Shown here in pieces: positions 953 to 25,192 of a stretch of 64,000 nt of DNA (position 1 is the stretch's first letter; the number at the start of each line of letters is the position of its first letter). A model generated the notes under the pieces. That model had not been told where the DNA came from. It saw only the letters and a list, made by a program, of their open reading frames with translations, and made no database searches. A program made the position numbers and the translations under genes. The DNA comes from an uncultured Flavobacteriales bacterium (lineage in GTDB: Bacteria; Bacteroidota; Bacteroidia; Flavobacteriales_D; Crocinitomicaceae). The stretch is from the NCBI GenBank assembly GCA_913054135.1, contig CAJXJK010000005.1, positions 206,925-270,924 on the forward strand, written 5' to 3'.

Positions 953-1052
953 AGTCTTAAAATTACCAAAACAGTGCCACAAATCCAAGATTCAATGAAT
1001 TATGTGACCTTTGCTACTTTGTTTAGTCGTACAACATCCTATTTTTGTACAG

Positions 1053-2777: not shown

Positions 2778-2817
2778 TTAATGTCACGAAAAGTTGAAGG
2801 TAAAGGCCTTAACTTTG
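2774..2817 (+). promoter_or_regulatory. Internal promoter for the MBL-rhodanese gene: GTGA-N6-TCAC palindrome plus -7 element
   Basis: GTGATTAATGTCAC at 2774-2787; TAACTTTG at 2810-2817 fits the Bacteroidota TAnnTTTG consensus; ATG at 2835. Confidence 0.45.
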
Positions 2818-2834
2818 AAGTAAGATTTAAAAGA

Positions 2835-4244
2835 ATGAAAGTAGAACAATTATATACAGGATGTTTGGCACAAGGTGCTTATTACATTGAAAGTAACGGA
2901 GAAGCGGCAATCATTGATCCGCTAAGAACAGTTGACGGCTACATTAAAATGGCTGCAGATAGAGGAGCGAAGATTAAGTATATTTTTGAGACTCACTTTC
3001 ATGCAGATTTTGTGAGTGGTCACGTGACCTTGGCGAAGGCCACAGGTGCTCCTATAGTTTACGGTCCGACCGCGAATCCACAATTTGATTGTGTGATAGG
3101 AGAAGACAATCAAGAATTCAAATTGGGTGATGTGACTATCAAATTGTTACACACTCCTGGTCATACCATGGAGAGTTCATCATATTTATTGATTGATGAA
3201 AACGGTAAAGAGCATTCATTGTTTTCAGGTGATACCTTGTTCTTAGGAGATGTTGGACGTCCTGATTTAGCTCAAAAGGCTGCTTCAATGACACAAGAAG
3301 AATTGGCAGGAATACTTTATGAAAGTTTAAGAAATAAGGTGATGACTTTGGCAGATGATGTGATTGTTTATCCTGGACATGGAGCAGGTTCTGCATGTGG
3401 TAAAAACATGAGTTCTGAAACAGTTGGTTCAATTGGACACGAGAAAGCAACAAACTATGCTTTGAGAGCAGATATGTCAAAAGAAGAGTTTGTCAAAGAA
3501 GTTACAGATGGCTTAATGGCTCCCCCAGCATATTTTCCTCTGAATGTTAAAATGAATAAAGAAGGATACGATCACTTTGATGAGGTATTGAATAGATCAA
3601 ATAAAGGTTTAAGTCCTCAAGCATTTGATGCTGCTGCGAATGAAACAAGTGCTGTAGTTTTAGATACAAGACATCAAACAGAATTCTCAAAAGGATTTAT
3701 ACCAAAATCTACTTTCATAGGAATTGATGGTGGATTTGCTCCTTGGGTTGGAGCATTGATTAAAGATGTTGAACAACCAATATTACTTGTGGTAGACGAA
3801 GGAAGAAGAGAAGAAGTAGTTACTAGGCTGGCAAGAGTAGGTTTTGATAATGTGTTAGGGTATTTAGAAGGAGGATTTGAAGCTTGGAAAGCGTCAGGTA
3901 AAGAAGTAGATTCTTTTGAAAGCATTTCAGCTGAAGACCTAGCAAAAATTCAAGGTAATGAAGACGTTAAGATTTGTGATGTCAGAAAACCTGGCGAGTA
4001 TGCTGCAGAACATATTGATGGAGCATGTACGGCACCATTAGATGATTTGAATAACTATTTAGAAAAGTTCGATCCAAACAAAACTAATTATGTTCACTGC
4101 TTAGGAGGGTACAGATCGGTAATAGCAATTTCAATATTAAAAGCAAGAGGAATCCATAATGTGGTTGACGTTCTTGGAGGCTTTAAAGCAATTGAAAAAG
4201 CAGATTTTAAGTTGACAGATTTTGTCTGTCCAACGACTTCATAA
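2835..4244 (+). CDS. MBL-fold persulfide dioxygenase-like hydrolase fused to two rhodanese domains (CstB/Blh-like)
   Basis: ETHFHADFVSG, HTPGHT, GDTLF.GDVGRPDL, YPGHGAGSACGK; C-terminal rhodanese with HCLGGYRS. Start set at MKVEQLY. Confidence 0.9.
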   Translation: MKVEQLYTGCLAQGAYYIESNGEAAIIDPLRTVDGYIKMAADRGAKIKYIFETHFHADFVSGHVTLAKATGAPIVYGPTANPQFDCVIGEDNQEFKLGDVTIKLLHTPGHTMESSSYLLIDENGKEHSLFSGDTLFLGDVGRPDLAQKAASMTQEELAGILYESLRNKVMTLADDVIVYPGHGAGSACGKNMSSETVGSIGHEKATNYALRADMSKEEFVKEVTDGLMAPPAYFPLNVKMNKEGYDHFDEVLNRSNKGLSPQAFDAAANETSAVVLDTRHQTEFSKGFIPKSTFIGIDGGFAPWVGALIKDVEQPILLVVDEGRREEVVTRLARVGFDNVLGYLEGGFEAWKASGKEVDSFESISAEDLAKIQGNEDVKICDVRKPGEYAAEHIDGACTAPLDDLNNYLEKFDPNKTNYVHCLGGYRSVIAISILKARGIHNVVDVLGGFKAIEKADFKLTDFVCPTTS

Positions 4245-4261
4245 AACTAAAAATTATAATA

Positions 4262-4666
4262 ATGAAAACGCTAAGATTATTAATGTTGGCAGCAACTTTT
4301 ACTGCCTTAAATGTAGGTTTCAGTATAAGCGCTAAACCTGCAATTCATCAACAAGATGATAAAAAACAAGTAGCTAAAAGAGTTACTCAAACTGAGTTTA
4401 AACAAAAACTTAAATCACTAAAAAATGTGCAGCTCATTGATGTGAGAACGAAAGGGGAGTTTAGCAGAGGAACAATTGAAGGAGCCGTAAATATAGATTA
4501 CAACTCATCTTCATTCAAAACCATGATTGGTAAACTAGATCGATCTAAGCCAACCATGATATTTTGTCATTCAGGAGGAAGAAGCTCGGCAGCTTTGAGA
4601 CAATTTAAGGCGCTCAAGTTTGAATATGTTCTTGAATTAGAAGGTGGATACAGCCATTGGAAATAA
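4262..4666 (+). CDS. Exported rhodanese-like domain protein
   Basis: Signal peptide MKTLRLLMLAATFTALNVGFSISA; LIDVRT..EF..G.I.GA; active-site FCHSGGRS; ELEGG. Confidence 0.88.
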   Translation: MKTLRLLMLAATFTALNVGFSISAKPAIHQQDDKKQVAKRVTQTEFKQKLKSLKNVQLIDVRTKGEFSRGTIEGAVNIDYNSSSFKTMIGKLDRSKPTMIFCHSGGRSSAALRQFKALKFEYVLELEGGYSHWK

Positions 4667-4674
4667 GCTGAGGT

Positions 4675-4911
4675 ATGTTAAAAGCGATAGAAAAGAATAT
4701 TAGTTTGTGGGCAATGGCCTCTTTCACTTTAGGACTTGCTCCTTTTAATCCACCGCACATTTGGGGTAAAATTCAATGGATAATGGGTGGAGCTGTAGGT
4801 ATGAAGGCTGTTGATTGGGGAGATTTCTTCATGCATGGCACTCCTTGGATCCTTTTGATAGTGGCACTTTCACTGAAACTGAAAAATAAATTACAAAAAA
4901 AAACATCTTAG
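4675..4911 (+). CDS. Small conserved two-TM membrane protein
   Basis: 78 aa with hydrophobic segments and a LGLAPF.PPHIWGKIQWI.GGA.GM...DW.D..MHG.PW motif; co-oriented with the rhodanese cluster. Confidence 0.7.
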   Translation: MLKAIEKNISLWAMASFTLGLAPFNPPHIWGKIQWIMGGAVGMKAVDWGDFFMHGTPWILLIVALSLKLKNKLQKKTS

Positions 4912-4912
4912 C

Positions 4913-4942
4913 ATAGGGGTAAGTTCATTTTGAGTTGTCATA
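4913..4942 (+). promoter_or_regulatory. Putative ECF-sigma promoter, copy 1
   Basis: ATAGGGGTAA-gttcattttg-AGTTGTCATA; both boxes and spacing are identical to 11004-11033. Confidence 0.75.
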
Positions 4943-4968
4943 TAACCAAAGACACAAAAATTAACAAA

Positions 4969-5700
4969 ATGAAAACTTTAAAAATTACCCTTATCGCATT
5001 AGCCGGATTGGCAACAATTACATCTTGTAAAAAAGGAGGCGTGTTCTGTTATGGAGCAAACGGCAATACAACAACCGAAACTAGAACGGCATCTAATTTT
5101 GATGAAGTAGAACTAGCAATGGCTGGAGATGTTTATATCACAAAAGCCGATAACTATTCAGTGCAAATTGAAGCTTCTGACAACCTTCATGAGATTATAG
5201 AAACGAAAGTGAGCGGATCTGAACTAGAAATTGACCTTCAAAACAATAAATGTTTAAAAGGGAATTCGAACGTCAAGATTTACATAACAATGCCCGAATT
5301 GACAGGCTTAACAGTTTCAGGGTCTGGCGGGATTTATGTTTCTTCATTCTTCGATTCAAACTCAATGGATATTGATATCTCGGGCTCTGGAGAAATTGAA
5401 ATGGATAGCTTAAAGGTGAATTCTTTTGACGCGAATATCTCAGGGTCAGGAGAAATGCTGATTCATGGTGTTGATACTTGCAATAATCAAAAATTGAATA
5501 TTTCGGGTTCTGGAAAATTCAGAGGTTATGATATGCTTACCAAAAGTTCAGACATTGACATATCAGGCTCAGGAAATTGTGAAATCAATGTTGTCAATGA
5601 CATTAAAGCAAGAATTTCAGGAAGCGGTAATGTAATTTATAAAGGTTCTCCTTCAATCGATTCAAATATTTCAGGATCAGGAACAGTAAGACCTTATTAA
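4969..5700 (+). CDS. Head GIN domain (DUF2807-like) lipoprotein
   Basis: Lipobox ITSC; repeated ISGSG/VSGSG beta-helix units; C-terminal ARISGSGNVIYKGSP. Start set at MKTLKIT. Confidence 0.85.
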   Translation: MKTLKITLIALAGLATITSCKKGGVFCYGANGNTTTETRTASNFDEVELAMAGDVYITKADNYSVQIEASDNLHEIIETKVSGSELEIDLQNNKCLKGNSNVKIYITMPELTGLTVSGSGGIYVSSFFDSNSMDIDISGSGEIEMDSLKVNSFDANISGSGEMLIHGVDTCNNQKLNISGSGKFRGYDMLTKSSDIDISGSGNCEINVVNDIKARISGSGNVIYKGSPSIDSNISGSGTVRPY

Positions 5701-5710
5701 TAATTTAATC

Positions 5711-5736
5711 GGTGAGAGAATTTCGGTTCTCTCACC
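5711..5736 (+). terminator. Strong hairpin after the GIN gene, abutting the sigma-factor promoter
   Basis: GGTGAGAGAA-tttcgg-TTCTCTCACC, a perfect 10-bp stem with a weak U-tract. Confidence 0.55.
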
Positions 5737-5737
5737 T

Positions 5738-5745
5738 TATCTTTG
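5738..5745 (+). promoter_or_regulatory. Housekeeping -7 element of the ECF sigma gene
   Basis: TATCTTTG, 5 nt before the GTG start at 5751. Confidence 0.55.
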
Positions 5746-5750
5746 TTTAA

Positions 5751-6308
5751 GTGCAATTAGTGGCTGATAAAATATCCCTCAATCAATTCGAAGATCTTTT
5801 TCGATCTCAGTATTCAGATTTATGTGCTGTAGCGAATAAGTATTTACAGGATTTAGATGCTGCCGAAGAGATTGTTCAATCTGTATTTGTGAAGTTTTGG
5901 GAAAGCCGAGAGAGTCTTCAGATCAAACAATCAATCAAAGGATATTTATTTACAGCAGTGAAGAATAATTGCCTAAATCAAATTAAGCACTTAAAAATTA
6001 AAGAAGAATATAAGGCACATAATCAAAGAGAGATTGCCTTAGAAGAAAGTCAATTTGAAGGAGAATTGGAAGGTTCTGAATTAGCCAAAAAAATCCAAGA
6101 ATCTATAGATAAATTGCCGGATGCTAGAAAGCAAATCTTCGTGCTTAGCCGATATGAAGGCTTGAAGTATAAAGAAATAGCCGAGAAATTAAACATCAGT
6201 ATAAAAACAGTTGAAAATCAAATGGGAAGCGCACTCAAATTCATGAAATCACAACTTTCAGAATATTTAGTAAGCCTATTAATTTTTATCATTTATATCT
6301 GGAAGTAA
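5751..6308 (+). CDS. ECF sigma-70 factor (Bacteroidota FecI-like)
   Basis: Region 2 AEEIVQSVFVKFWE...KGYLFTAVKNNCLN; region 4 IFVLSRYEGLKYKEIAEKLNISIKTVENQMGSALK; hydrophobic C-terminal tail; adjacent to fecR. Confidence 0.93.
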   Translation: MQLVADKISLNQFEDLFRSQYSDLCAVANKYLQDLDAAEEIVQSVFVKFWESRESLQIKQSIKGYLFTAVKNNCLNQIKHLKIKEEYKAHNQREIALEESQFEGELEGSELAKKIQESIDKLPDARKQIFVLSRYEGLKYKEIAEKLNISIKTVENQMGSALKFMKSQLSEYLVSLLIFIIYIWK

Positions 6309-6328
6309 ATGAAGTATTAATTGTCATA
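6299..6328 (+). promoter_or_regulatory. Putative ECF-sigma promoter, copy 2 (degenerate), upstream of FecR
   Basis: CTGGAAGTAA-atgaagtatt-AATTGTCATA; same 10-nt spacer; overlaps the sigma stop codon. Confidence 0.6.
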
Positions 6329-6338
6329 AGAGAAGAAC

Positions 6339-7346
6339 ATGTCAGAAAACAACTACATAGAATTCAATGAAGCAACCCTAATGGCTTATATCAACAAAGA
6401 GTTGAGTGATGAGCATATGGGAATGGTAGATCATTGGCTGACACTTTCTGATGATAACCAAGAAGAGATGGATAAATTGAAGAAGATATGGGACGGAAGT
6501 AAATTGGTAGCTGTGACCCCAGTTACTGTTGACACTGAAAGTGCATTGAAAAATGTACTTTCCCAAATTGATACCTCTGAAGAAAAAGTAATCCCAATTG
6601 AAAAGCCAACTAATTTCAGAAGAATATTCTTGTCTGCGGCAGCAATTATGATAGCATTAATTGGGGTCGTAGGATTACTCAATTACATTAATGGATCAGT
6701 TGAACAAATGAGTTTGACGGCGAGCTCGGGGATTTTAGAAAGTGAACTTCCTGATGGTACTTCAGTGAGCCTTAATGAAAACGCAACCTTAAAATATCAA
6801 AGTGAATTCTCTTCAAATGAAAGAAGAGTTGCGCTTGAAGGAGAGGCATTTTTTGATGTTGAACGAAACGAAGAAAAACCTTTTATCATTGATCTACATC
6901 ATGAGTCATATGTGAAAGTTTTAGGAACTTCATTCAATATTGATGCAGATGATAAGAAAGAGTTCACTACGGTATATGTTAAAAGCGGAAAGGTTGAATT
7001 CGGAACAGAGAAGGACCAAGTGACACTCAATGCTGGCGAAACTGGAGTAATGAATAATCTCACTGGTGAAGTTGAGAGGCGAGTAAATGAAAGCGAAGAG
7101 ATGAAAAGCATTTACTGGAAAACGCAAGAACTTGATTTTGATGACATCAAACTCTCTGAAACTATTGAGATATTGGAAGATGTTTTTGAAGTAAAAATTG
7201 ATCTGAATTGCATAGAAAAAGGAGACGATAGATTGGTGTCACATCACAAAGATGAGACGCTAGATGAAATTCTAAATGTTATTGCAACTGTTCTAGACCT
7301 TGATCTTATTCAAACCAGAGTATCTTATCAATTAAATTGTGATTAA
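6339..7346 (+). CDS. FecR-family anti-sigma factor
   Basis: N-terminal anti-sigma helices, single TM (ILSAAAIMIALIGVVGLL), LPDGTSVSLN, RRVALEGEAFFDV, VKVLGTSFN, VKSGKVEF, C-terminal STN-binding domain. Confidence 0.93.
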   Translation: MSENNYIEFNEATLMAYINKELSDEHMGMVDHWLTLSDDNQEEMDKLKKIWDGSKLVAVTPVTVDTESALKNVLSQIDTSEEKVIPIEKPTNFRRIFLSAAAIMIALIGVVGLLNYINGSVEQMSLTASSGILESELPDGTSVSLNENATLKYQSEFSSNERRVALEGEAFFDVERNEEKPFIIDLHHESYVKVLGTSFNIDADDKKEFTTVYVKSGKVEFGTEKDQVTLNAGETGVMNNLTGEVERRVNESEEMKSIYWKTQELDFDDIKLSETIEILEDVFEVKIDLNCIEKGDDRLVSHHKDETLDEILNVIATVLDLDLIQTRVSYQLNCD

Positions 7347-9195
7347 AAAAGCACTTTTGTTCCTATTGGTATTGCTTTGCGTTCAATCTGCAGATGCAAA
7401 AAAAATGCTTTTAGATAGAGTCATTTCAATTGAGATTAAGGCAACTCCAATCAAGAGAATCTTGAAGGCAATTGAAGAAAAAGCACAAGTTAAATTCTCC
7501 TACAATCCTGATCTCATTGATGAGAATAAAATTGTTGATTTAGTGATAAAAGAGAAGTCCATCCGTGATGGTCTTTCTATGATTTTTGACGGAACAGTTC
7601 GTTTTAAAGAGGTAGGGAATCACATTGTTCTCTTGCAAAATGAATCAAAAGAGCAAATCAAAGAACGTAGAAAAGAAAAGGGGGATTACATTTTTCAAGG
7701 CTTAATAAGTGATAAGAGAACAGGCAAAGCTATTCAAGGCGCCAGCGTATATGATGTTGATGCCAGGTTTGCAGCTGTTTCTCATGCTAACGGAAGGTAT
7801 AGGTTAGAAATTCCGAAAGAAGAAAGTGTAAGAAGTTTATACTTCAAGAAAAAGGGCTATGAGGCACAAGTCATTGTAATTAGGGCAGATGATGCCTTTT
7901 CTTGGGTAAACAATATCAGCTTAGTTCCCATTGAAATTGATGTCAATAAAATTGGGGTGTCGGCCATTGAGAAAGTAGAAGTGCCAATTGAAGAAAGAGC
8001 GCTTTCAGGGGCTTTGGTTTCTGAAGATACTTATATCCATTCTGAAAATTTAGAAGAAATAGATGAGGTGCGTTTTGCCCAAATATCTTTAGTGCCTTCG
8101 GTTGGTATTGGCTCAAACCTTTCCACAAATGGTTTGATCACCAATAATTTATCTCTTAACATCTTAGCAGGATATTCAAACGGAGTGGATGGCGTTGAAG
8201 TTGGAGGGCTCATGAACATGACAAAGGGAGATGTAAGTGGAGTTCAAGTTGCTGGAATTACCAGTTTAGTGGGTGGTGATGTTCAAGGGGTGCAAGCTGC
8301 AGGAATCGCAAATCTCATTCAAGGTAATTTTGACGGAACTCAAATTTCAGGTGTGAGTGGAATTGTGAAGGGAGATTTCATTGGATTTCAAGGATCAGGA
8401 ATCTCCTCAATAGTTAGAGGCGGTTATCGCGGCATTCAGTTAAGCGGTATTAGTAATGTCGCTTTTAAAGATTCGTATGGTTTCCAGTTTGCAGGTATTT
8501 CAAATACAGTTTTTGACACCTTAGTTGGAGGGCAAGTTTCTGGAATTGCCAACTTCGCCTTAAAAGGTTCTAACTATTTGCAAGTATCCGGCATCACAAA
8601 TCTTGCCGAGAACAATTATGGATTACAAGTAACTGGAATCTTTAATAGAGCTAAACATAACGGAGGCCTTCAACTTGGTTTGGTTAACCTGAGCAAAACA
8701 AGTACGGGAATCGCTATTGGCCTTTTCAATTATGTCCGTAAAGGATACCATAAAACAGAGGTGGCTGCAAATGAAATATTCCCGGTCAATCTAACCTTTA
8801 AAACAGGGGTTCAAAGATTATACAATACTTATCATTTCGGAGTTAAATTTGGTCCGAGCAGAGCGTATGCTGCTGGTTTAGGATTCGGAACTTTTTTCAG
8901 GCTCAACAATAAAATGACAATCAGTCTTGATCTATCTGGTGATATGGCCTATGAACCAGAATTGAATGTTAATGGTTTTTCTCAGCTTTATAAACTGTCT
9001 TCGACATTTGATTATCAAATCGCAAAATGGGTAACTGTATTTGGCGGTCCATCTTTCAATGTAAACGTCATGCAATTTCAAGATGATACTGGTCAATACA
9101 ATTCTAACCTCTCATTCAATCCTTTCTACAATGAGCAATTCACTAATGCAGGTGTACAGTGTTGGGTGGGCGGGCAAATTGGATTTAGGTTTTAA
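7339..9195 (+). CDS. STN + CarboxypepD_reg-like + Gly-rich GxQxxGxxN repeat (LA_2272-like) + C-terminal OM barrel protein
   Basis: Signal peptide; STN (LLDRVISIEIKATPIKRILKAIEEKAQVKFSYNPDLI); GLISDKRTGKAIQGASVYD; about a dozen ~15-aa repeats; ends GGQIGFRF. No TonB-receptor plug or 22-strand barrel length. GTG start overlaps the fecR stop. Confidence 0.8.
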   Translation: MIKKALLFLLVLLCVQSADAKKMLLDRVISIEIKATPIKRILKAIEEKAQVKFSYNPDLIDENKIVDLVIKEKSIRDGLSMIFDGTVRFKEVGNHIVLLQNESKEQIKERRKEKGDYIFQGLISDKRTGKAIQGASVYDVDARFAAVSHANGRYRLEIPKEESVRSLYFKKKGYEAQVIVIRADDAFSWVNNISLVPIEIDVNKIGVSAIEKVEVPIEERALSGALVSEDTYIHSENLEEIDEVRFAQISLVPSVGIGSNLSTNGLITNNLSLNILAGYSNGVDGVEVGGLMNMTKGDVSGVQVAGITSLVGGDVQGVQAAGIANLIQGNFDGTQISGVSGIVKGDFIGFQGSGISSIVRGGYRGIQLSGISNVAFKDSYGFQFAGISNTVFDTLVGGQVSGIANFALKGSNYLQVSGITNLAENNYGLQVTGIFNRAKHNGGLQLGLVNLSKTSTGIAIGLFNYVRKGYHKTEVAANEIFPVNLTFKTGVQRLYNTYHFGVKFGPSRAYAAGLGFGTFFRLNNKMTISLDLSGDMAYEPELNVNGFSQLYKLSSTFDYQIAKWVTVFGGPSFNVNVMQFQDDTGQYNSNLSFNPFYNEQFTNAGVQCWVGGQIGFRF

Positions 9196-9295
9196 TCAAA
9201 AAATCCAATTCATCTAGCAGATAATAAACTGCTTGCTTTTGTTTAATTAGATAATTGCGAGATTAATTCATTGTTTCTTTCTTTAAAGAAAAAAG

Positions 9296-10246
9296 ATGAA
9301 ACTGCTCTTCCTCATATTTGCTATTATCCCGTTTACCATCTTTGCCCAAAAGGCTAATGACTTAGGAGTTTATGATTATTATGCTCTTCATCAAAAAAAT
9401 GAACCAAAACAAGGATTCATTGTCCTTTCTGATATGTTCCCTTTTGACGAATTCAAAGGTGATAACAATATTATTGCACCAGAACATCTAGGTGAATTTG
9501 AGTTTTCGAATGATAACTATCATGAGTTAAAGGGTGAAAACCGAGACCGATTTTTAGGGGCCCTGAAAATTCAAGAAACAGACTTTCTTTTCGTCAACAA
9601 TCTAAATCTAAATAAGATTAAATCGTTCAAGGTGAGTCAGCTAAAACTAACAGCCTTCTTGAGTCCATATCGTCCTGATATTACTGTGCATAATTGGGAT
9701 TACCTCATAGGTTTTGAGTTGGGTTCTGTTCAAATGCCATTTAATCCTCCAGATATTTATGGTCAAACAATCTTTTCATGCGTCGGCGCAAAGAATCCTT
9801 TTAATCAAGGCAAAGCAGAACCAATGAAGTGGAAAAAAGTTAATCAAAGTGAGTTTATTTGGAAGCTAGAGAAAGATGAAACTCCAAAACATATGCTAGA
9901 CATTAAGTACAAGAGCGTCTATAAATTCAAGTGGAGCAAATTAAATTATTACGTTCGTGAAATCTATGCAGGTGATTTTCTCTATGGTTATTACCTTGTT
10001 GTTACAAAGTCTAAATCAGGAGAGAAGGTGAACTCAATGCTCTTTTTTGAAAGCGAAGGCACTTACCTTCAACCCTTGAATGGTCAAAAAAATAGTTCTG
10101 GAGACCTGCAGTTCACCGGCTATATCTTCAAAGATAAACCACCAATCATTTATGGTTTTCAATCAAACTCTTTTGGATGCCCTTACATTTCCTTCGCAGA
10201 TGATACCGATAATTACCTTTGGTTAAAGTGCGATAATAGACACTAA
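9296..10246 (+). CDS. Exported hypothetical protein
   Basis: 316-aa ORF with signal peptide MKLLFLIFAIIPFTIFA; ends FGCPYISF...WLKCDNRH. Confidence 0.7.
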   Translation: MKLLFLIFAIIPFTIFAQKANDLGVYDYYALHQKNEPKQGFIVLSDMFPFDEFKGDNNIIAPEHLGEFEFSNDNYHELKGENRDRFLGALKIQETDFLFVNNLNLNKIKSFKVSQLKLTAFLSPYRPDITVHNWDYLIGFELGSVQMPFNPPDIYGQTIFSCVGAKNPFNQGKAEPMKWKKVNQSEFIWKLEKDETPKHMLDIKYKSVYKFKWSKLNYYVREIYAGDFLYGYYLVVTKSKSGEKVNSMLFFESEGTYLQPLNGQKNSSGDLQFTGYIFKDKPPIIYGFQSNSFGCPYISFADDTDNYLWLKCDNRH

Positions 10247-10280
10247 GAAAATCTTAACTTAGTGAGCTCAATAAAAGCCC

Positions 10281-10973
10281 ATGGGAATCGGAAAATACTT
10301 TGGAGGCGTTTGGAAAATATTCGCTTCAATCACGCTCACCTTATTCATTTTAAGTGTAATCATTTATGGATTAGACTTGAATGTAAGCCAACCTGAAACG
10401 AATAAGCAAACGATTACGAGCCATCTTGAAAATGAACGCTCAACAAGACATTATTTTGAATTGAACGATTCTATTTGTTTTGTTGTCGATACCGAAGAAG
10501 CAAAAGAAGACCGTGTGGTCACCATGAAGTCATATACCACAAACTTTGTCCCTTTCTGTTATTTCTGTGGATATAATCGAGGAACGTATCGTTATGAATA
10601 CGGGATCTACATTGATGAACCGTACATGTATGGTGATTTTGTTTACACCAAAATCCCTTATGATTATGATGACGGAGAAATTCCATTCGGCAGCTTTCAA
10701 ACGTACAATTTCAAAACAGGCAAAGATGGTTATGTTGAGCAATTAGAAGATATCGGGCCAGACGCAGCAAATAACAAATACAGGGTCACTGAAGATTATC
10801 TCTTAGAGAATAACGGCCTAATTTCTTACTACGAAAATGAATCTTGTCAAATCGCCTTTGGGGTCATTTTTGTTTTGGTTGCAGGTTTATTATTAGGAGC
10901 AATGATTGGTGTTCCAATTAGAGTTTATCGATTTAGAAAGCAAGCTAAAAAAGAGGCTCAAGGCGAATCTTAA
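10281..10973 (+). CDS. Hypothetical membrane protein (N- and C-terminal TM helices, Tyr-rich loop)
   Basis: 230-aa ORF with two hydrophobic segments flanking a soluble domain. Confidence 0.65.
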   Translation: MGIGKYFGGVWKIFASITLTLFILSVIIYGLDLNVSQPETNKQTITSHLENERSTRHYFELNDSICFVVDTEEAKEDRVVTMKSYTTNFVPFCYFCGYNRGTYRYEYGIYIDEPYMYGDFVYTKIPYDYDDGEIPFGSFQTYNFKTGKDGYVEQLEDIGPDAANNKYRVTEDYLLENNGLISYYENESCQIAFGVIFVLVAGLLLGAMIGVPIRVYRFRKQAKKEAQGES

Positions 10974-11003
10974 TCAAAGCCATATAGAAAATTTTCTCTC
11001 CCA

Positions 11004-11033
11004 ATAGGGGTAAACGTTCTTTCAGTTGTCATA
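11004..11033 (+). promoter_or_regulatory. Putative ECF-sigma promoter, copy 3
   Basis: ATAGGGGTAA-acgttctttc-AGTTGTCATA, 24 nt upstream of the TonB receptor ATG. Confidence 0.75.
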
Positions 11034-11057
11034 AATGTGAAACAAGCATTTTAGACA

Positions 11058-13421
11058 ATGAAAACAACAAAAATTCTATTATTACTTTCTATCCTTTTTA
11101 TCGGAGGATCATCTTTTTCTCAAGGTTTAACTCAAACGCTTAGAGGAACAATTATTGACTTTGATTCTAAGGTTCCGCTCATTGGAGCTAAAGTAATCGT
11201 TTTCGGAACAGATCCTTTGCAAGGTTCAGTAACTGACCTCAATGGAGATTTTAAAATTGAAAATGTCAAAGTAGGTCGGGCAGCTATTCAAATTACTTCC
11301 ACAGGATATAAGCCCATTTCAATGCCTTCAGTTCTAATCGAGTCAGGGAAAGAGAAAATCCTGAATCTTCAAATGACAGAAGACATCAAAGTACTTGGGG
11401 CAGTTGATGTAAAAGCCAATAAAGATAAATCAGAGTCTATCAACAAAATGGCAACAACATCAGCCAAAACATTTACAGTTGAAGAAACAAACAGATATGC
11501 CGGTTCATTAAATGATCCTGCCAGAATGGTCTCTGGTTTTGCAGGTGTCACGGGGGATGCAGAAGGAGATAACGACATTGTCGTGAGAGGGAACTCCCCG
11601 CGTGGCATCCTTTGGAGATTAGAAGGAATTGATATTCCAAATCCAAATCACTTTTCTGATAACGGAGCAACCGGTGGTCCTATAAACGCATTGAACGGAT
11701 CGGTTTTAGCCAACTCTGATTTCTTTTCAGGAGCCTTTGCACCTGAATATGGTAATGCACTCTCAGGAGTGTTTGACGTCAAAATGAGAACAGGAAACAA
11801 TGAAAAAAGAGAGTATTCATTCTCTGCTGGTGTTATCGGTTTAGACGGAACATTAGAAGGACCTTTTTCTAAAAACTCAAGAGCATCATACATGGTGAAC
11901 TATAGGTATTCATCAATCGCATTGTTGGATAAAGCTGGTATTCTTGATTTTGACGGAATTCCAATTTATCAAGACGCCGCATTTAAGCTCAACTTTCCAA
12001 CTAAAAAGGCCGGAACTTTCACCCTAATTGGTTTGGGTGGAATGAGTAAAATTGATCAAACAGATCAAAATGATTCTACTGGTGAAGTGTACGGTAGGTA
12101 CGACTTCAAAGCCAACTTGGGAGTAGCAGGATTAAAGCACACATACATTGTGAATCCTAAAGTTTATGTGAAAAGTTTTATCTCAGCATCTACTCAATAT
12201 AATGGCGGAGAAGGGCAGTTTTTAAATTCAGATTCAGTCTTGTTCTTATCCGAACGAGAAGGGAATACTGATAACCAATTAAAGGCGCAATCTATCGTGA
12301 ATTATAAGATGAACAAGAAGAACATCTTTCAAGTAGGTGCCACCTACACGCATTTCAACTACAATTTCTATTACGAAGACGACTATGATGATGAAGACGG
12401 AATTATGACACGTCATAATAATTCAAAAGGAGATGCCGATATGCTGCAATCATTCTTGAGTTGGAAGTACAGAATTACCAATGATCTGACGGTCGTGTCA
12501 GGAGTCCATCATACCCATTACCTATTGAACAACAATTTTAAAGTTGAACCGAGAGTTGGGATGAAATGGCAACTAAATCCAAGACACAGTTTATCTGCTG
12601 GTTTCGGGATGCATTCAAAACTAGAATCACCTTCGGTTTATTTGTACAATGAATTGCAAGAAGATGGATCATATAAATATCCAAACAGAGATTTAGATCT
12701 AACAAAGAGTACTCATTATGTTTTAGGATATGGTTTCAGAATCTCTGAACACTTACACTTGAAGTCTGAAGTATATTATCAAGCTTTATCAAACATTCCA
12801 GTAGCTAAGGATACTGCAGCTGAATCAGGCTTCTTTAGTTTCGTGAATTGGTCTTCAGGAGTTCCAGATTTTGAATTGGTAAATGAAGGTACGGGTCATA
12901 ATTATGGAGCTGAATTGACATTGGAAAGATTCTTTGAAAACAACTTCTATTTCTTGTTAACGGGCTCGATTTATAAATCACAATACAAGGGGTCTGATGG
13001 TATTTTGAGAGATACGCGATATGACGCCAATTTCGCTTCTAATTTCTTGGCAGGTAAAGAATTCAAATTTGGTAAAAAGAAGAATTTAAATAAGACATTC
13101 GGAATCAACACTAAGGTATCGTTGATTGGTGGAAACAGATTTACTCCAATTGATTTACAAGCTTCTCAAGATGCCGGATATACGGTAAGAGATTGGGACA
13201 ATCCTTGGGGTAAAAAAGGAGAGAATGTGTTCTTCATCAATTTAGGATTGACATACAGATGCGACATGAAAAGAGCAAGTCACTCTTTCAAAATTGACAT
13301 TCAAAATCTTACAAATAATCAATCTGTTGTTTCAGAATATTATAACGGCAGAACAGGAACTATAGACACTGATACGCAACTGTCTTTCATTCCAAACATC
13401 ATTTATACAATTAAATTTTAA
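11058..13421 (+). CDS. TonB-dependent receptor with CarboxypepD_reg-like N-terminus (no STN)
   Basis: Signal peptide; QTLRGTIIDFDSKVPLIGA; plug NDPARMV...VVRGNSPRGILWRLEGIDIPNPNHF; FFSGAFAPEYGNALSGVFD; C-terminal PNIIYTIKF. Confidence 0.9.
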   Translation: MKTTKILLLLSILFIGGSSFSQGLTQTLRGTIIDFDSKVPLIGAKVIVFGTDPLQGSVTDLNGDFKIENVKVGRAAIQITSTGYKPISMPSVLIESGKEKILNLQMTEDIKVLGAVDVKANKDKSESINKMATTSAKTFTVEETNRYAGSLNDPARMVSGFAGVTGDAEGDNDIVVRGNSPRGILWRLEGIDIPNPNHFSDNGATGGPINALNGSVLANSDFFSGAFAPEYGNALSGVFDVKMRTGNNEKREYSFSAGVIGLDGTLEGPFSKNSRASYMVNYRYSSIALLDKAGILDFDGIPIYQDAAFKLNFPTKKAGTFTLIGLGGMSKIDQTDQNDSTGEVYGRYDFKANLGVAGLKHTYIVNPKVYVKSFISASTQYNGGEGQFLNSDSVLFLSEREGNTDNQLKAQSIVNYKMNKKNIFQVGATYTHFNYNFYYEDDYDDEDGIMTRHNNSKGDADMLQSFLSWKYRITNDLTVVSGVHHTHYLLNNNFKVEPRVGMKWQLNPRHSLSAGFGMHSKLESPSVYLYNELQEDGSYKYPNRDLDLTKSTHYVLGYGFRISEHLHLKSEVYYQALSNIPVAKDTAAESGFFSFVNWSSGVPDFELVNEGTGHNYGAELTLERFFENNFYFLLTGSIYKSQYKGSDGILRDTRYDANFASNFLAGKEFKFGKKKNLNKTFGINTKVSLIGGNRFTPIDLQASQDAGYTVRDWDNPWGKKGENVFFINLGLTYRCDMKRASHSFKIDIQNLTNNQSVVSEYYNGRTGTIDTDTQLSFIPNIIYTIKF

Positions 13422-13423
13422 TC

Positions 13424-14584
13424 ATGAAAAAGATATTCATAATAGGCGCTATCGCGCTCACATCACTTAGTAGTTTTTCTCAGGAAGATTCAACGCTAAC
13501 AAGAGCAACACAAGTTTCATTTATTTATCCTATCGGAACCAATGGAGTTGATGCAACCAAATACACAAACAACTTTTCATTCAATGTCCTTTATGGCTTA
13601 AACGGAGGCTTGAACGGTGTAGAAATTGGTGGACTAGTAAACTCAAATATAGGTGCTGTGAATGGCGCGCAGTTTGCAGGAATCGCTAACATCAACGGGG
13701 CAACAGCACATGGGTTTATGGGCGCCGGAATAGCAAACGTAATTAAGGATTCTTCAAATTCAATTTCAGGTGCTGGTATCGCAAATGTCTGTGGCGGAAA
13801 CTTTGTCGGATTGCAAATGGCAGGAATTGCAAACGCAGTAAAAGGTGATTTCTTAGGTGGTCAAATGTCAGGTATAGCAAATTTCAATCATGGCGATTTT
13901 AAAGGGGCACAACTTAGCGGAATTGCAAATACAAGTACGGGTAATTTTTATGGATTGCAGGGTTCTGGAATTGCAAATTTTGTTGGAGGAGATTTACAAG
14001 GTGCTCAGGTTGGATTGGTTAACCGTGCAAGAAAAATCAAAGGATTTCAATTGGGATTAATCAATGTTGCAAATGATTTTGAAAGTGGTGTTCCGCTTGG
14101 CTTGATCTCTTATGTTAAAAATGGATATCATGCCGTTGAGTTGGCTGGTGGTGATGCCGTTTACGGAAATCTAAATTTCAAATTAGGTGTAGAAAAGTTG
14201 TATAATATCTATAAGATTGGATTCGCACCCAATGGGTCTGAACAATACTTTACTTACGGTTTAGGGTTAGGAAGCAAACTGAATTTTACCGAAAAATTCG
14301 GTTTATCCATTGAAGGTTCTGCTTCGCACATTGTTCATCAAAACTTCAATCCAAGATTAGATATGTTGAACAAATTAGACGTCAACTTCAGATATGCATT
14401 GGGTGACCATTTTGACCTTTTTGCAGGGCCGTCTTTCAACGTATACTTATCACAACATGACCCTGAAACAGAATCTTCAGCACTCAATGTTCCTTATTCA
14501 TTGTTCACTCACAATTGGGGTAACGGAGAAGGTCAAACTTATATGTGGCTTGGAGCAAATGCTGGCATCTGCGTTAACTTCTAA
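13424..14584 (+). CDS. Gly-rich repeat (LA_2272-like) OM protein; paralog of the C-terminal half of 7339-9195
   Basis: QVSFIYPIGTN...TNNFSFNVLYGLNGGLNGVEIGGLVN, GxQxxGIAN repeats, GLISYVKNGYHAVE...FKLGVEKLYNIY, terminal GICVNF. Confidence 0.8.
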   Translation: MKKIFIIGAIALTSLSSFSQEDSTLTRATQVSFIYPIGTNGVDATKYTNNFSFNVLYGLNGGLNGVEIGGLVNSNIGAVNGAQFAGIANINGATAHGFMGAGIANVIKDSSNSISGAGIANVCGGNFVGLQMAGIANAVKGDFLGGQMSGIANFNHGDFKGAQLSGIANTSTGNFYGLQGSGIANFVGGDLQGAQVGLVNRARKIKGFQLGLINVANDFESGVPLGLISYVKNGYHAVELAGGDAVYGNLNFKLGVEKLYNIYKIGFAPNGSEQYFTYGLGLGSKLNFTEKFGLSIEGSASHIVHQNFNPRLDMLNKLDVNFRYALGDHFDLFAGPSFNVYLSQHDPETESSALNVPYSLFTHNWGNGEGQTYMWLGANAGICVNF

Positions 14585-14612
14585 TAAAGACTGTAAATAT
14601 CAAATCAATTTT

Positions 14613-14640
14613 AGGCCGACTTTTGTAGTCGGCCTTTTTT
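14613..14640 (+). terminator. Intrinsic terminator
   Basis: AGGCCGACT-tttgt-AGTCGGCCT followed by TTTTT. Confidence 0.85.
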
Positions 14641-14791
14641 GTCATTCAGAACAAAAAATGTCGTCTTGAACATTATTCAGAAATCCCAGAATAACATCAA
14701 AGTTGATTTAAGTTTTTATCAAAACGGAGTTTATTTATTGAACCTAGCAACAAAAGAAGGAAGCTTCTTTAAGAGAGTTGTCAAACAATAA
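14639..14791 (+). pseudogene. Orphan T9SS C-terminal sorting domain fragment
   Basis: Frame reads ...NNIKVDLSFYQNGVYLLNLATKEGSFFKRVVKQ*, typical of a type-A CTD tail. An in-frame stop at 14612-14614 lies just upstream; no signal peptide or cargo. Confidence 0.6.
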
Positions 14792-14810
14792 CTAACTGAA
14801 AACAATAAGC

Positions 14811-14849
14811 AAAGAGGCCAATCAAAATTTTGATTGGCCTCTTTTTTTT
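14811..14849 (+). terminator. Intrinsic terminator
   Basis: AAAGAGGCCAATCAAA / TTTGATTGGCCTCTTT long inverted repeat plus T-run. Confidence 0.85.
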
Positions 14850-14851
14850 GA

Positions 14852-14881
14852 GTAGGGGTATTGTATTGGGAATTCGTCTTA
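14852..14881 (+). promoter_or_regulatory. Putative ECF-sigma promoter, copy 4 (degenerate)
   Basis: GTAGGGGTAT-tgtattggga-ATTCGTCTTA; GGGGTA and GTC.TA cores with the same spacing as copies 1-3. Confidence 0.5.
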
Positions 14882-15006
14882 TTGACGAATAAGAAACCAA
14901 TTTTAACCAAATTAAGGTTGAAAAGTAAATGAATGACTTGGGTCGCCATTGAACCTTTTAGCTGTTATTTGTGTTATAGAGATACAAAACTTAAAAGACT
15001 ACTATT

Positions 15007-15237
15007 ATGTCGTATCATATAAATCTGAAGGAGAGAATCCAAAACAATGAATTGATTGGCTTTGAGATTTTTCAAGATTATCAAGGCAAAGCAGAAAAAA
15101 TGCTGCTTTACTTTCAGTCAGAACCTAAGATTAGACCTATCCTCAAGAACAAAATTGAAGAGTATAAGGTAATGCTCAAAGACATTAATACTCGTTTTGA
15201 GCAAATCACAACAGGCTTTTCACCAATATCACATTAG
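15007..15237 (+). CDS. Small hypothetical protein, paralog of 20945-21142
   Basis: 76 aa; 22/51 ungapped identities to the 20945 product; followed by hairpin AAAGCT-atct-AGCTTT plus T-run. Confidence 0.7.
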   Translation: MSYHINLKERIQNNELIGFEIFQDYQGKAEKMLLYFQSEPKIRPILKNKIEEYKVMLKDINTRFEQITTGFSPISH

Positions 15238-15333
15238 AAAGCTATCTAGCTTTTTTTCTTTCATTGCTTCATAAAGCTCATTAAATGTTGACGCATTAGA
15301 CACTCTTAGATAAAATCCCATTAAATTTGTGTC

Positions 15334-15945
15334 ATGTCTTTCAAAAAAATTAATCAAGAATTACTTGAGGTCTTAGCTGCAGAAGGTGTTGAATCGCCTA
15401 ATGATTTTCAAAAGGCTATGATTCCAAAAATTAAGTCTGGGGCTAGTTGTTACGGTTTTGCCGAAAAGGGAGCTGGTAAAACTACTACCGCCTTAATAAT
15501 GGCTTTGAATAAGATTGATTTTAAAGAGCAAGGTGACAATCCGCAAGTGGTAATATTTGCAGAGAACAAGAAGAAGGTTGTAGCGATTGAGGAGATGTTG
15601 AAAGAGCTAACTTTCAGAACTGAAATCAGAACATTCTCAATTTATGAAGAAGGCGATTTGACTTTTCAAAAGAATACCATTTATCCAGGGGTTGACATTT
15701 TGGTAGCCACAACTAAGCGATTTGCACAATTATATTTTCAGAACGGAATCAATTTGAACGAATTGAAAATGATTATGGTAGATGATGCTGAGTTTTTGAA
15801 TCGCGGCACTTCTCATACTGATCTTGATCGTATTAACGAGAGTTTGAAAAGTTGTCAATTCGTCCTGTTTGCTGCTGAAGATGATCCAAAATTTAAGAGG
15901 CTCAATGATTTATTCATGCAAAGAGCTGTTAAAGTGAAGGCTTAA
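15334..15945 (+). CDS. Single-domain degenerate DEAD-box helicase (RecA1 only)
   Basis: Q-motif GVESPNDFQKAMIP, Walker A AEKGAGKTTT, DILVATT, motif II MVDDAE; ends at 203 aa with no helicase C domain. TAAATTTG at 15322-15329. Confidence 0.8.
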   Translation: MSFKKINQELLEVLAAEGVESPNDFQKAMIPKIKSGASCYGFAEKGAGKTTTALIMALNKIDFKEQGDNPQVVIFAENKKKVVAIEEMLKELTFRTEIRTFSIYEEGDLTFQKNTIYPGVDILVATTKRFAQLYFQNGINLNELKMIMVDDAEFLNRGTSHTDLDRINESLKSCQFVLFAAEDDPKFKRLNDLFMQRAVKVKA

Positions 15946-16488
15946 CTATTTCTTTTTCTTCTTTTTTTTCTTTCGGTTGAAATTCAATCCATCCACATCC
16001 CATTTTCGGTCGGTGACCAAAGTAAAACGAAGTCTTATAAAAAGTCCGTTTGTGTTTGTGAAAGTATCGCTTGGGGTTAAGATGTGGTATCCAGCCTGTA
16101 AATGAAAGCCAAAAAGGCGATATCCAATCATAGGTGATATGCCATATCTCGTTTCGTCAAAGTTCGTTCTCAAAACCAAACTAGCGCCAAAACTCATGTT
16201 CAGTCGGCCTTGTTTATACCAATAGCCGGTTTCAAAACCTAGGGCTGGTTCTTCCCATCCAAAATTCATCCCCAAATGAATGCCGTGAACACTAGCCTTT
16301 GTCAAAGAAATCTTCTTGAACATCATTTCAGATCCTAATTCAATTACTGAAGCTCGTCCTAACTCATATCCAATATAAGGTCCTACTTTTCTTACCGAGA
16401 TGTCAAGCGGTTTAATCTTGAGGCGATCATCTGCGAAAGCAGTTTGAACCCCTAGTGAGAAAATAAATATGAATAATAGATACTTCAT
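15946..16488 (-). CDS. Exported, probably small beta-barrel protein with poly-Lys tail
   Basis: Signal peptide; alternating aromatic/Gly beta-strand pattern; C-terminal NRKKKKKKK. Confidence 0.65.
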   Translation of the reverse strand: MKYLLFIFIFSLGVQTAFADDRLKIKPLDISVRKVGPYIGYELGRASVIELGSEMMFKKISLTKASVHGIHLGMNFGWEEPALGFETGYWYKQGRLNMSFGASLVLRTNFDETRYGISPMIGYRLFGFHLQAGYHILTPSDTFTNTNGLFIRLRFTLVTDRKWDVDGLNFNRKKKKKKKK

Positions 16489-24193: not shown

Positions 24194-25192
24194 ATGGCGT
24201 TTTTCAAGAATGTAAGAAGATTACTGGGTGCGACTGTGTTGACGCTATTCTTCAGTTTGTTCTTGGGGTCATGCAACAAAGAGTATAACATCCCTATTCC
24301 ACAAACCGTTCAATTCGAACAAAACTTATCTGCCTACAACATTTTTCAAGGGGAGATGAAAAACCTAGTGCCTTCATCTGATTTTTATGAAATCGAATTA
24401 AGTTCAATCCTTTATTCGAATTATGCGAAAAAACAAAGGTTGATAATGGTTCCTTCTGGAACGATTGTCACTGAAAATGGTAATGGAATTCCTGTGTTTC
24501 CAGAAGGCTCAATTTTAGTGAAAACATTCTATTACTTTATAGATGAAACCAATGAAACCTTGGGTAAACAAATAATTGAGACAAGACTCTTAATAAAAGG
24601 TCAAGGTGAGTGGAACGTAGCTACTTACATTTGGAATGAAAATCAAACCGAAGCTACTCTAGAAAATAATGGACTAGACACACAGGTTGATTGGATAGAT
24701 GCAGCAAGTGATTCCAGATCAATTGATTATCATGTGCCTTCTCAAAATGAATGTGTTAAATGTCATCAAAGTGTTTCTGAAGTGATGCCGATTGGACCAT
24801 CATTGAGAAATTTGAATAGGGAGGTAGTTAGGAATTCAGTTACACTTAACCAGCTGCAACACCTGCAATCAGAAGGCGTATTAAACAGTTTTGATATTAG
24901 TGGAATTAGTTCAATTCCGGATTATAATGATTTGAGTGTTTCGCTTTCAGATAGAGGTAGAGCTTATATGGATATGAACTGTGCGAGCTGTCACAACCCT
25001 GATGGTTTGAGTGAGGCAGAGAAGAAAGGGTTTGATTTTAGATTTGAAACGGAACTAGGAGACACAAAAATTTTAAAGAAGAAAGACTTGATTATTGAGA
25101 TGATGGAAGAAGGCAGAATGCCAGATGTTGGTACTACCGTCATTGACCAAGAAGGATTAGATCTCATGAGAGAGTATATCAATAGTCTTTAA
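24194..25192 (+). CDS. Diheme c-type cytochrome lipoprotein (SO2930-like)
   Basis: Lipobox FLGSC; LYSNYAKKQRLI, FP.GSILVKTFYY, IETRLLI; CVKCH and CASCH heme motifs; RMP near the C-terminus. Confidence 0.75.
   Translation: MAFFKNVRRLLGATVLTLFFSLFLGSCNKEYNIPIPQTVQFEQNLSAYNIFQGEMKNLVPSSDFYEIELSSILYSNYAKKQRLIMVPSGTIVTENGNGIPVFPEGSILVKTFYYFIDETNETLGKQIIETRLLIKGQGEWNVATYIWNENQTEATLENNGLDTQVDWIDAASDSRSIDYHVPSQNECVKCHQSVSEVMPIGPSLRNLNREVVRNSVTLNQLQHLQSEGVLNSFDISGISSIPDYNDLSVSLSDRGRAYMDMNCASCHNPDGLSEAEKKGFDFRFETELGDTKILKKKDLIIEMMEEGRMPDVGTTVIDQEGLDLMREYINSL

Follow-up and report, generated by a model that had tools for sequence, protein, structure and literature searches.

A conserved two-box motif beside a FecR-linked sigma factor gene of Bacteroidota: a predicted ECF promoter and its targets

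Introduction

Promoters of extracytoplasmic function (ECF) sigma factors follow an AAC-N16/17-CGT rule; GGAACTT-N15/16-GTCAAA is the sequence used by Escherichia coli sigma-E and TGAAAC-N16-CGTA that used by Bacillus subtilis SigW. Promoters of the Bacteroidota housekeeping sigma factor, sigma-A, carry TTTG at -33 and TAnnTTTG at -7. The AAC-N16/17-CGT rule and the sigma-E geometry are those of Staron 2009, as cited in PMC9723704. Here we describe a two-box motif, ATAGGGGTAA-N10-AGTTGTCATA, which occurs twice in a 64,000-nucleotide (nt) stretch of DNA of an uncultured Flavobacteriales bacterium of the Crocinitomicaceae (contig CAJXJK010000005.1). The whole stretch is called the window; all coordinates are given in its numbering, and the motif and the gene set discussed lie on its plus strand. 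The two exact copies, at 4913-4942 and 11004-11033, are very probably promoters for RNA polymerase carrying the ECF sigma factor encoded between them, at 5751-6308.

The closest described signalling systems are FecA/FecR/FecI and the SusC-like systems of Bacteroides polysaccharide utilization loci. The locus shares with them an ECF sigma factor gene followed by a gene for an anti-sigma factor with FecR and FecR_C domains, an adjacent gene for an outer-membrane protein with an N-terminal STN domain and a TonB-dependent receptor that would be under the control of the sigma factor. The FecI-like ECF clade, groups ECF239 to ECF243, was described with predicted group-specific promoters, and no member of ECF240 had been studied experimentally (Casas-Pastor et al. 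2021, PMC7826278). The sigma factor of the window is a Bacteroidota FecR-linked ECF factor, plausibly of group ECF239 or ECF240, as assigned from its FecR partner and the taxon. Our approach, and the kind of prediction it yields, are the same as those of the group-specific predictions. The motif string is not mentioned in the literature that was searched; the predicted motifs of the ECF classification were not part of the comparison, and the motif may be present in the ECF Hub.

Two exact copies of the motif

As the preliminary description of this DNA had it, both 10-mers are identical at the two sites and the spacers differ. Only 0.01 exact copies are expected in the 64-kb window, and no further copy with up to three mismatches was found anywhere in it. 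The sites were scored with a position weight matrix refined on 93 sites from relatives and applied to all window sites. The features of the two sites are the following:

4894-4904, plus strand: UP-like A-rich tract 5' of predicted promoter 1, which fits the A/T-rich tract of the 93 sites
4913-4942, plus strand: predicted ECF-type promoter 1, exact match, 35.8 bits, with -35 box TAGGGGTAA (4914-4922) and -10 box TTGTCATA (4935-4942)
10985-10996, plus strand: UP-like A/T-rich tract GAAAATTTTC 5' of predicted promoter 2, which likewise fits that tract
11004-11033, plus strand: predicted ECF-type promoter 2, exact match, 36.6 bits

The spacers of the two copies are 30% and their 40-nt flanks 40% identical, which is the level of AT-rich background; the pair is therefore not a duplicated segment. 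Rfam, scanned over 4000-16000, gave no match at the motif sites, and the sites look neither like a repeated or mobile element nor like a structured RNA. A bglG-cis-reg match at 14767-14864 was far below threshold (30.6 bits, gathering score 80) and was disregarded as probable noise. Apart from the fact that the window holds only two copies, nothing suggests that they arose by chance repetition or belong to a short element, mobile or repeated, that has no regulatory role. The low chance expectation, the lack of likeness outside the boxes, the missing Rfam match and the phylum-wide conservation at orthologous positions described below make this explanation practically negligible.

TAnnTTTG is absent from the four intergenic regions that hold exact or degenerate copies (4600-4970, 6290-6345, 10970-11060 and 14580-15010), in agreement with the earlier statement that none of the copies is a promoter of this type. 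The motif sites resemble Bacteroidota sigma-A promoters in their position before genes, but do not have the TAnnTTTG -7 box, and TAGGGG and TTGTC, the blocks that they conserve, bear no relation to that consensus. A scan for E. coli-type sigma-70 promoters gave hits at shuffle level; such a scan is uninformative for Bacteroidota.

The 93 sites define a consensus with -35 box TAGGGGTAAA, -10 box TTGTCnTA and the core GGGGT-N16-GTC. T2, A3, G4 to G7 and T8 of the first box are near-invariant, as are T24, G25, T26 and C27, together with T29, of the second; the spacer columns carry at most 0.5 bit each. Among 88 sense-strand matches 85 have a spacer of 10 nt between the 10-mers. Two conserved blocks thus stand at a fixed distance around an unconserved spacer. 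The scan pattern given in the preliminary description, GGGGTA-N13-GTCNTA, has to be corrected: GGGGTA occupies motif positions 4-9 and GTCATA positions 25-30, so that the gap is N15.

Two further features lie in columns that were not used for selecting the sites. Position 36, 6 nt past the second box, is a purine in all 93 sites (67 A, 26 G), and an A/T-rich tract is found at motif positions -18 to -9. If the purine is taken as +1, GTC falls at -11 to -9 and GGGG at -32 to -29. Transcription is predicted to start at this conserved purine 6 nt after the -10 box, at A4948 for promoter 1 and G11039 for promoter 2, which would leave leaders of 21 nt to the ATG at 4969 and 19 nt to the ATG at 11058.

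Judged by its boxes and their spacing, GGGGT-N16-GTC is a canonical ECF geometry, which parallels AAC-N16/17-CGT and the GGAACTT-N15-GTCAAA of sigma-E. Like the sigma-E and SigW promoters, the motif consists of two short conserved blocks whose spacer varies in sequence and is fixed in length; it likewise has a G-rich -35 box, a GTC-type -10 box, a position before the operon of the sigma factor itself in many genomes and, as predicted here, a small and mostly envelope-related regulon beside the sigma factor gene. It differs from them in the -35 box TAGGGGTAAA, which lacks AAC, in a distance between the boxes that is about 1 nt shorter, in the unusual invariance of the boxes over several classes of one phylum and in the fact that the sigma factor gene of the window does not lie directly behind a site.

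Conservation across Bacteroidota

The genes of the window to which the comparison refers are the following:

4969-5700, plus strand: DUF2807 (Toastrack) protein with signal peptide (Pfam PF10988, E 1.4e-44), first gene behind predicted promoter 1
5751-6308, plus strand: ECF sigma factor, presumed reader of the motif (Pfam Sigma70_r2 and r4_2, NCBIfam TIGR02985)
6339-7346, plus strand: FecR-type anti-sigma factor (Pfam FecR, E 3.9e-15; FecR_C, E 2.5e-5)
7339-9195, plus strand: outer-membrane protein with STN signalling domain and signal peptide (Pfam STN, CarbopepD_reg)
11058-13421, plus strand: TonB-dependent receptor (Pfam CarboxypepD_reg, Plug and TonB barrel; no STN), first gene of the predicted promoter 2 operon
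13424-14584, plus strand: repeat-plus-barrel protein (NCBIfam LA_2272 repeat), second gene of the predicted promoter 2 operon

The 20 specified bases of the motif were searched as an exact pattern in one genome per prokaryotic species (596 Gb). The search returned 56 stretches, against about 1-3 expected by chance (our own calculation). Evident binning errors apart, they come from Bacteroidota throughout, with Fluviicola and other Crocinitomicaceae, Cyclobacteriaceae, Chryseolinea, Flammeovirgaceae, Pedobacter, Chitinophagaceae and Bacteroidales represented. The motif is sense-oriented and stands directly before a homologue of one of the window genes (sigma, FecR, STN, DUF2807, receptor or repeat/barrel protein) in 46 of the 56. 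It precedes the sigma factor gene in about 30 stretches and lies between sigma and fecR in five (L008, L012, L035, L044 and L048); other sites precede pairs of DUF2807 and receptor genes, of repeat protein and receptor genes or of receptor and repeat protein genes. In most of the remaining loci the motif stands before genes for small outer-membrane beta-barrel or DUF2807-like proteins.

Short contigs with the Bacteroidota locus were also seen in metagenome-assembled genomes labelled otherwise, namely L066 (Chlorobiota), L077 (Lentisphaeria) and L040 (JANOJH010000253.1, 'Bdellovibrio sp.'). The sequence of L040 is the same as that of the Bacteroidia locus L021 over the stretch compared. The placements of all three are likely to be binning errors.

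As a safeguard against circularity, 80 loci (L057-L136) were fetched solely via homology of the sigma protein. In these sigma-selected loci, near-matches (up to four mismatches and a 10-nt spacer) numbered 85 in sense and 1 in antisense orientation. In the 1.29 Mb covered, the matrix score reached or exceeded 12 bits at 107 positions in sense and at 4 in antisense orientation. The distance from the motif to the start codon was 6-60 nt for sigma, fecR, DUF2807, receptor and repeat-protein genes.

All eight closest relatives, which are Crocinitomicaceae, have exactly two sites, in the same two places as the window. The promoter 1 sequence is identical in L137, L138 and L139. In L137, a close relative whose STN protein is 91% identical to that of the window, promoter 2 keeps its boxes with tolerated changes. 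L137 lacks the gene at 10281, and its homology to the window starts 2 nt 5' of the promoter 2 motif; the sequence further upstream is unrelated. The motif is conserved, together with its orientation, its position and its gene association, and it recurs at orthologous positions next to the sigma factor gene in other genomes.

These observations bear on the idea that the motif is an operator for a conventional DNA-binding transcription factor, be it an activator or a repressor. Such an idea can draw on the fact that the link between motif and sigma factor comes from comparison and not from experiment and that the sigma factor gene of the window is not directly behind a site. An operator would, however, hardly account for the strict directionality (85 to 1), for the constant spacing from an invariant purine and from start codons or for a GTC -10 signature at ECF spacing. 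The motif is neither a palindrome nor a direct repeat, and the loci have no conserved transcription factor gene, whereas the sigma factor is conserved. We regard an operator as extremely unlikely.

Predicted transcription around the sigma factor gene

In the window two elements lie between the DUF2807 gene and the sigma factor gene:

5711-5736, plus strand: terminator-like hairpin 3' of the DUF2807 gene, 11 pairs followed by a T-rich tail, -18.6 kcal/mol as an RNA fold
5738-5745, plus strand: perfect Bacteroidota housekeeping-type -7 box (TAnnTTTG) TATCTTTG, directly before the sigma factor gene

The same box recurs in this place in five of the eight close relatives. Because of the hairpin and the separate TAnnTTTG box, autoregulation, the usual argument for linking a motif to a sigma factor, is indirect in the window. 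The sigma, fecR and STN genes probably have their own basal promoter in this family, and ECF-dependent transcription would reach them only through read-through. Autoregulation of the sigma factor, which the preliminary description had implied, would thus persist in the window only by way of read-through of the 5711-5736 hairpin, and its direct form is not borne out.

The 80 sigma-selected loci show several arrangements:

Predicted promoter directly before the sigma factor gene: 23 loci
Predicted promoter between sigma and fecR: 22 loci
Predicted promoter before a DUF2807 gene that precedes sigma: 8 loci (9 with L060)
No site, or one only at a greater distance upstream or downstream: 24 loci; three more contigs were too short

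In Pedobacter loci that have no site at the sigma factor gene, a site stands before an upstream operon of repeat protein and DUF2807 genes, which is followed by sigma. Position between sigma and fecR is found in many lineages, often just 6-13 nt from the fecR ATG. With such a spacing the fecR mRNA would be leaderless or nearly so, and the sigma factor would induce its anti-sigma factor and not itself.

Several Cyclobacteriaceae loci (L001, L006, L017, L019, L033 and others) have a conserved CGTAAATT[G/A]CAC box about 20-35 nt past the motif. On its 5' side lies the ECF -10 box, and on its 3' side the conserved GTG from which sigma appears to start, about 52 nt after the motif. The box looks like a second promoter, of TAnnTTGY type, in tandem with the ECF promoter; the SM5 motif (PMC9723704) serves as its comparison. 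Motif-to-sigma distances of about 110 nt that had been obtained in this family were discarded as an artefact of open reading frame (ORF) calling from ATG only, the start appearing to be GTG.

The arrangements also bear on whether the promoters might be read by another, unlinked paralogous ECF sigma factor of the same genomes. Bacteroidota genomes have about 22 ECF sigma factors each, several of them of the same group (PMC7826278), and about ten loci with the exact motif have no sigma factor gene inside the 8-kb stretch that was fetched. Against this, the motif is at sigma, at fecR or at the preceding DUF2807 gene in at least 53 of the 80 sigma-selected loci, and in most of the rest it stands at an operon upstream. 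Box variants, moreover, track the lineage of the linked sigma factor. Sites of one genome have variants in common: both sites of L059 read GGGGG, and both sites of L060, L061 and L063 read GGGGTC...GTGTCC. Box identity within genomes was 0.798, compared with 0.738 after permutation, and one of 5000 permutations, which disregard relatedness among the genomes, reached the observed value. Shared variants are expected if both sites co-evolve with a single lineage-specific reader. Reading by an unlinked paralogue is, in our judgement, very unlikely, and the comparison strongly supports the earlier claim that conserved boxes around a variable spacer would be the -35 and -10 elements of a promoter of the adjacent ECF sigma factor.

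Degenerate copies

The preliminary description had counted four copies of the motif as marking an ECF regulon. The two exact copies stand; the other two, of which one scores at background and one is borderline and unconserved, do not carry that claim:

6299-6328, plus strand: degenerate copy at the sigma/fecR junction, 5 of 20 positions mismatched, 3.1 bits; unsupported
14852-14881, plus strand: degenerate copy 3' of the operon, 5 of 20 positions mismatched, 14.4 bits, with a good -35 box and the -10 box TCGTCTTA; ambiguous

The matrix scores in the window are 36.6 bits for the copy at 11004, 35.8 for 4913, 14.4 for 14852, 7.0 for 24966 and 3.1 for 6299. Chance gives 0.63 matches with up to five mismatches per window, and three with five mismatches are present, at 6299, at 14852 and at 24966, the last of which had been overlooked. 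The 24966-24995 match lacks G4 and G7 and was rejected as a site. By chance, a window should hold 5-7 hits that reach 3.1 bits, whereas for hits that reach 14.3 bits the expectation lies between under 0.03 and 0.2; a score at the level of 14852 occurred 0 times in 10 Mb of Markov-simulated sequence and twice in 1.29 Mb of antisense sequence.

The 6299 copy overlaps the stop codon of sigma (6306-6308), as had been stated. Its -10 box is perfect. Of the near-invariant positions, G5 and G6 are missing, and the first box falls within the coding sequence of sigma. The eight close relatives all lack a site at this position; in the counterpart in L137 the spacer is 1 nt shorter and GTCATA has become GTCACA. 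A true site at the sigma/fecR junction exists in 22 of the 80 sigma-selected loci and in five loci with the exact motif, in several of them about 10-13 nt from the ATG as in the window. The copy may be a chance match or what is left of a decayed site; nothing supports its working as a promoter, and the proposal that it acts before fecR fails on its background score and its disruption in L137.

The string at 14852 is present as described, but not just upstream of a gene: the nearest ORF on the plus strand is 125 nt off, with its start at 15007, and the leader would be 120 nt. A small hairpin with perfect pairing, ATTCGTC-ttatt-GACGAAT at 14872-14890, encloses the -10-like box. Counterparts are missing from all relatives, L137 shows no synteny in this region, and the L058 homologue of the 15007 ORF has no site upstream. 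Real sites of L061 and L063 share the CGTC variant of this copy. By its score and its boxes the copy is a possible promoter, unproven and on balance rather doubtful. The ORF-free stretch around it, 14640-14890, adjoins a terminator-like hairpin at 14613-14635 and contains another, bidirectional, at 14811-14844.

A reading in which all four copies function, including an internal fecR promoter at 6299 and an extra target at 14852, is improbable. It can appeal to other lineages, where a true and even exact site occupies the sigma/fecR junction equally far from the ATG (22 of 80 loci; L008, L012, L044 and L048) and to the perfect -10 box at 6299. It can also appeal to the fully acceptable -35 box of 14852, to its CGTC variant and to the rarity of 14.4 bits by chance. 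Opposed to it are, for 6299, the loss of G5 and G6, the background score, the first box placed in coding sequence and a spacing altered by deletion in the 91%-identical relative. For 14852 they are the absence of counterparts in relatives, the siteless L058 homologue of the downstream ORF, the -10-like box buried in a hairpin and the 120-nt leader.

Proteins and neighbouring genes of the locus

The sigma factor (185 amino acids, in the range of about 180-200 typical of ECF factors) has sigma-70 regions 2 and 4 only and matches TIGR02985 with 181 bits (cutoff 126), as an ECF sigma factor does; its relatives in the PDB are ECF sigma factors, including SigW, SigK and SigE. Its start codon is uncertain (GTG at 5751 or GTG at 5760) and would leave almost no leader. 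The recognition helix of region 4 is nearly invariant in 79 orthologues, which is weak evidence, as these residues are conserved in ECF sigma factors generally. A promoter-independent mechanism such as that of dCas12f-sigma-E (PMC13472631) was considered inapplicable: the locus has FecR, and the ORFs examined in it showed no Cas12f-like gene.

DUF2807 has been merged into the Toastrack domain, which is linked to envelope-stress systems (PMC11237479). The anti-sigma factor carries FecR and FecR_C domains, as in cell-surface signalling, where a periplasmic FecR domain is joined to a C-terminal domain that binds STN. The STN domain, which in such signalling sits on the TonB-dependent transducer, is here on the 7339-9195 protein, and the receptor has none. 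An AlphaFold model of this protein (alignment of 66 sequences, pLDDT, the model's own confidence score, 87.6) was compared domain by domain via Foldseek. The modelled order is STN, a transthyretin-like CarbopepD_reg domain, beta-solenoid-like repeats and a C-terminal small barrel of eight strands. The corresponding Foldseek matches were PupB and the N0 domain of PilQ, the transthyretin-like domain of carboxypeptidase, and the barrels of OmpA, OmpX and NspA. Pfam finds neither Plug nor TonB barrel in it. The 13424-14584 protein, which has no STN domain, is paralogous to the C-terminal two-thirds of the STN protein, residues 231-615 (BLASTP, 34% identity, E 9e-57).

The locus therefore differs from FecA/FecR/FecI and the SusC-like systems in three respects. 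The STN domain belongs to a protein that combines beta-solenoid repeats with a small barrel like those of OmpA and OmpX; the receptor predicted to be regulated has neither STN domain nor SusD partner; and the further outputs would be a Toastrack protein and a paralogue of the sensor that lacks STN. The remaining features of the region are these:

9296-10246 and 10281-10973, plus strand: two lineage-specific ORFs without family matches, between the operons
14613-14635, plus strand: terminator-like hairpin at the end of the predicted promoter 2 operon

The 9296-10246 ORF was found only in the closest relatives, L137-L139. The 10281-10973 ORF is absent even from L137; the sequence 5' of promoter 2 is thus lineage-specific. 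Upstream of promoter 1, at 1011-4911, lie sulfur-related genes for a sulfate transporter with STAS domain, a fusion of metallo-beta-lactamase fold and rhodanese, a rhodanese protein and a small membrane protein. The cluster, which has nothing to do with the ECF regulon, shows synteny in L137 and L139. An ORF on the minus strand, at 15946-16488, ends in a run of about ten lysines from an A-run.

Discussion

We infer from the comparison that transcription from the two exact sites depends on the sigma factor of the locus, that it starts at the conserved purines and that the genes form a signalling path. The -35 box TAGGGGTAAA would be recognized by region 4 of the sigma factor, and TTGTCnTA, the -10 box, by its region 2. 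Promoter 1 would drive the Toastrack gene, with read-through of 5711-5736 adding to the transcription of the sigma, fecR and STN genes, and promoter 2 would drive the STN-less receptor and the repeat/barrel protein. The FecR-type anti-sigma factor would sequester the sigma factor until the outer-membrane STN protein signals to the C-terminal domain of FecR; the freed sigma factor would then transcribe the Toastrack gene and the operon of receptor and repeat protein. The signalling path is drawn by analogy with FecA/FecR/FecI and the Bacteroides SusC-like systems. Because all the gene products have a signal peptide or belong to the outer membrane, the gene content suggests an envelope or outer-membrane response.

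Several points weigh against this interpretation. The hairpin at 5711-5736 shields the sigma factor gene from promoter 1, and that gene has a TAnnTTTG box of its own. Compared with the optimum of E. coli sigma-E, the -35 and -10 boxes stand about 1 nt closer together, and the permutation test of box variants takes no account of relatedness among genomes. No RNA run was found with the window or usable relatives, Station-ALOHA-type metatranscriptomes gave zero reads against L064, and runs for the Fluviicola locus L028 were assembled contigs of unclear kind, from which no 5' ends were obtained. FecI-like sigma factors have, in addition, been reported to give poor promoter predictions and possibly to recognize promoters atypically (Todor et al., bioRxiv 10.1101/2020.06.23.168245). 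Set beside the conservation, directionality and gene association of the motif, these points leave promoters for the adjacent ECF sigma factor as the very probable identity of the sites at 4913-4942 and 11004-11033.

An ECF promoter beside the gene of its sigma factor is an ordinary, textbook kind of element. Less ordinary is the exact conservation of 20 bases across several classes for what appears to be a member of the FecI-like clade, as is, in the AlphaFold model, an STN domain on a protein with a small barrel that is not of the TonB type. It is conceivable, and we put it forward only tentatively, that the motif is the signature of a phylum-wide, uncharacterized envelope module. Such a module would have its STN domain on an outer-membrane protein that is not a transporter and a near-invariant, information-rich promoter (TAGGGGTAAA, TTGTC, purine start), and its outputs would be an STN-less paralogue of the sensor, an STN-less receptor, Toastrack proteins and small barrels. 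If this is true, the module would be a non-canonical form of cell-surface signalling and a counter-example to the view that FecI-like sigma factors are weak or unpredictable in their promoter specificity.

If the prediction holds, it provides the recognition sequence and the core regulon of a conserved family of ECF sigma factors that ranges over Cytophagia, Sphingobacteriia, Chitinophagia, marine Bacteroidales and Flavobacteriales other than Flavobacteriaceae, and of which no member appears to have been studied so far. Reporter fusions, start-site mapping and searches for the inducer would then become designable. The value of the finding lies in annotation and in an entry point to an uncharacterized envelope response with an unusual sensor, an STN domain on a small-barrel protein, and not in a new principle.

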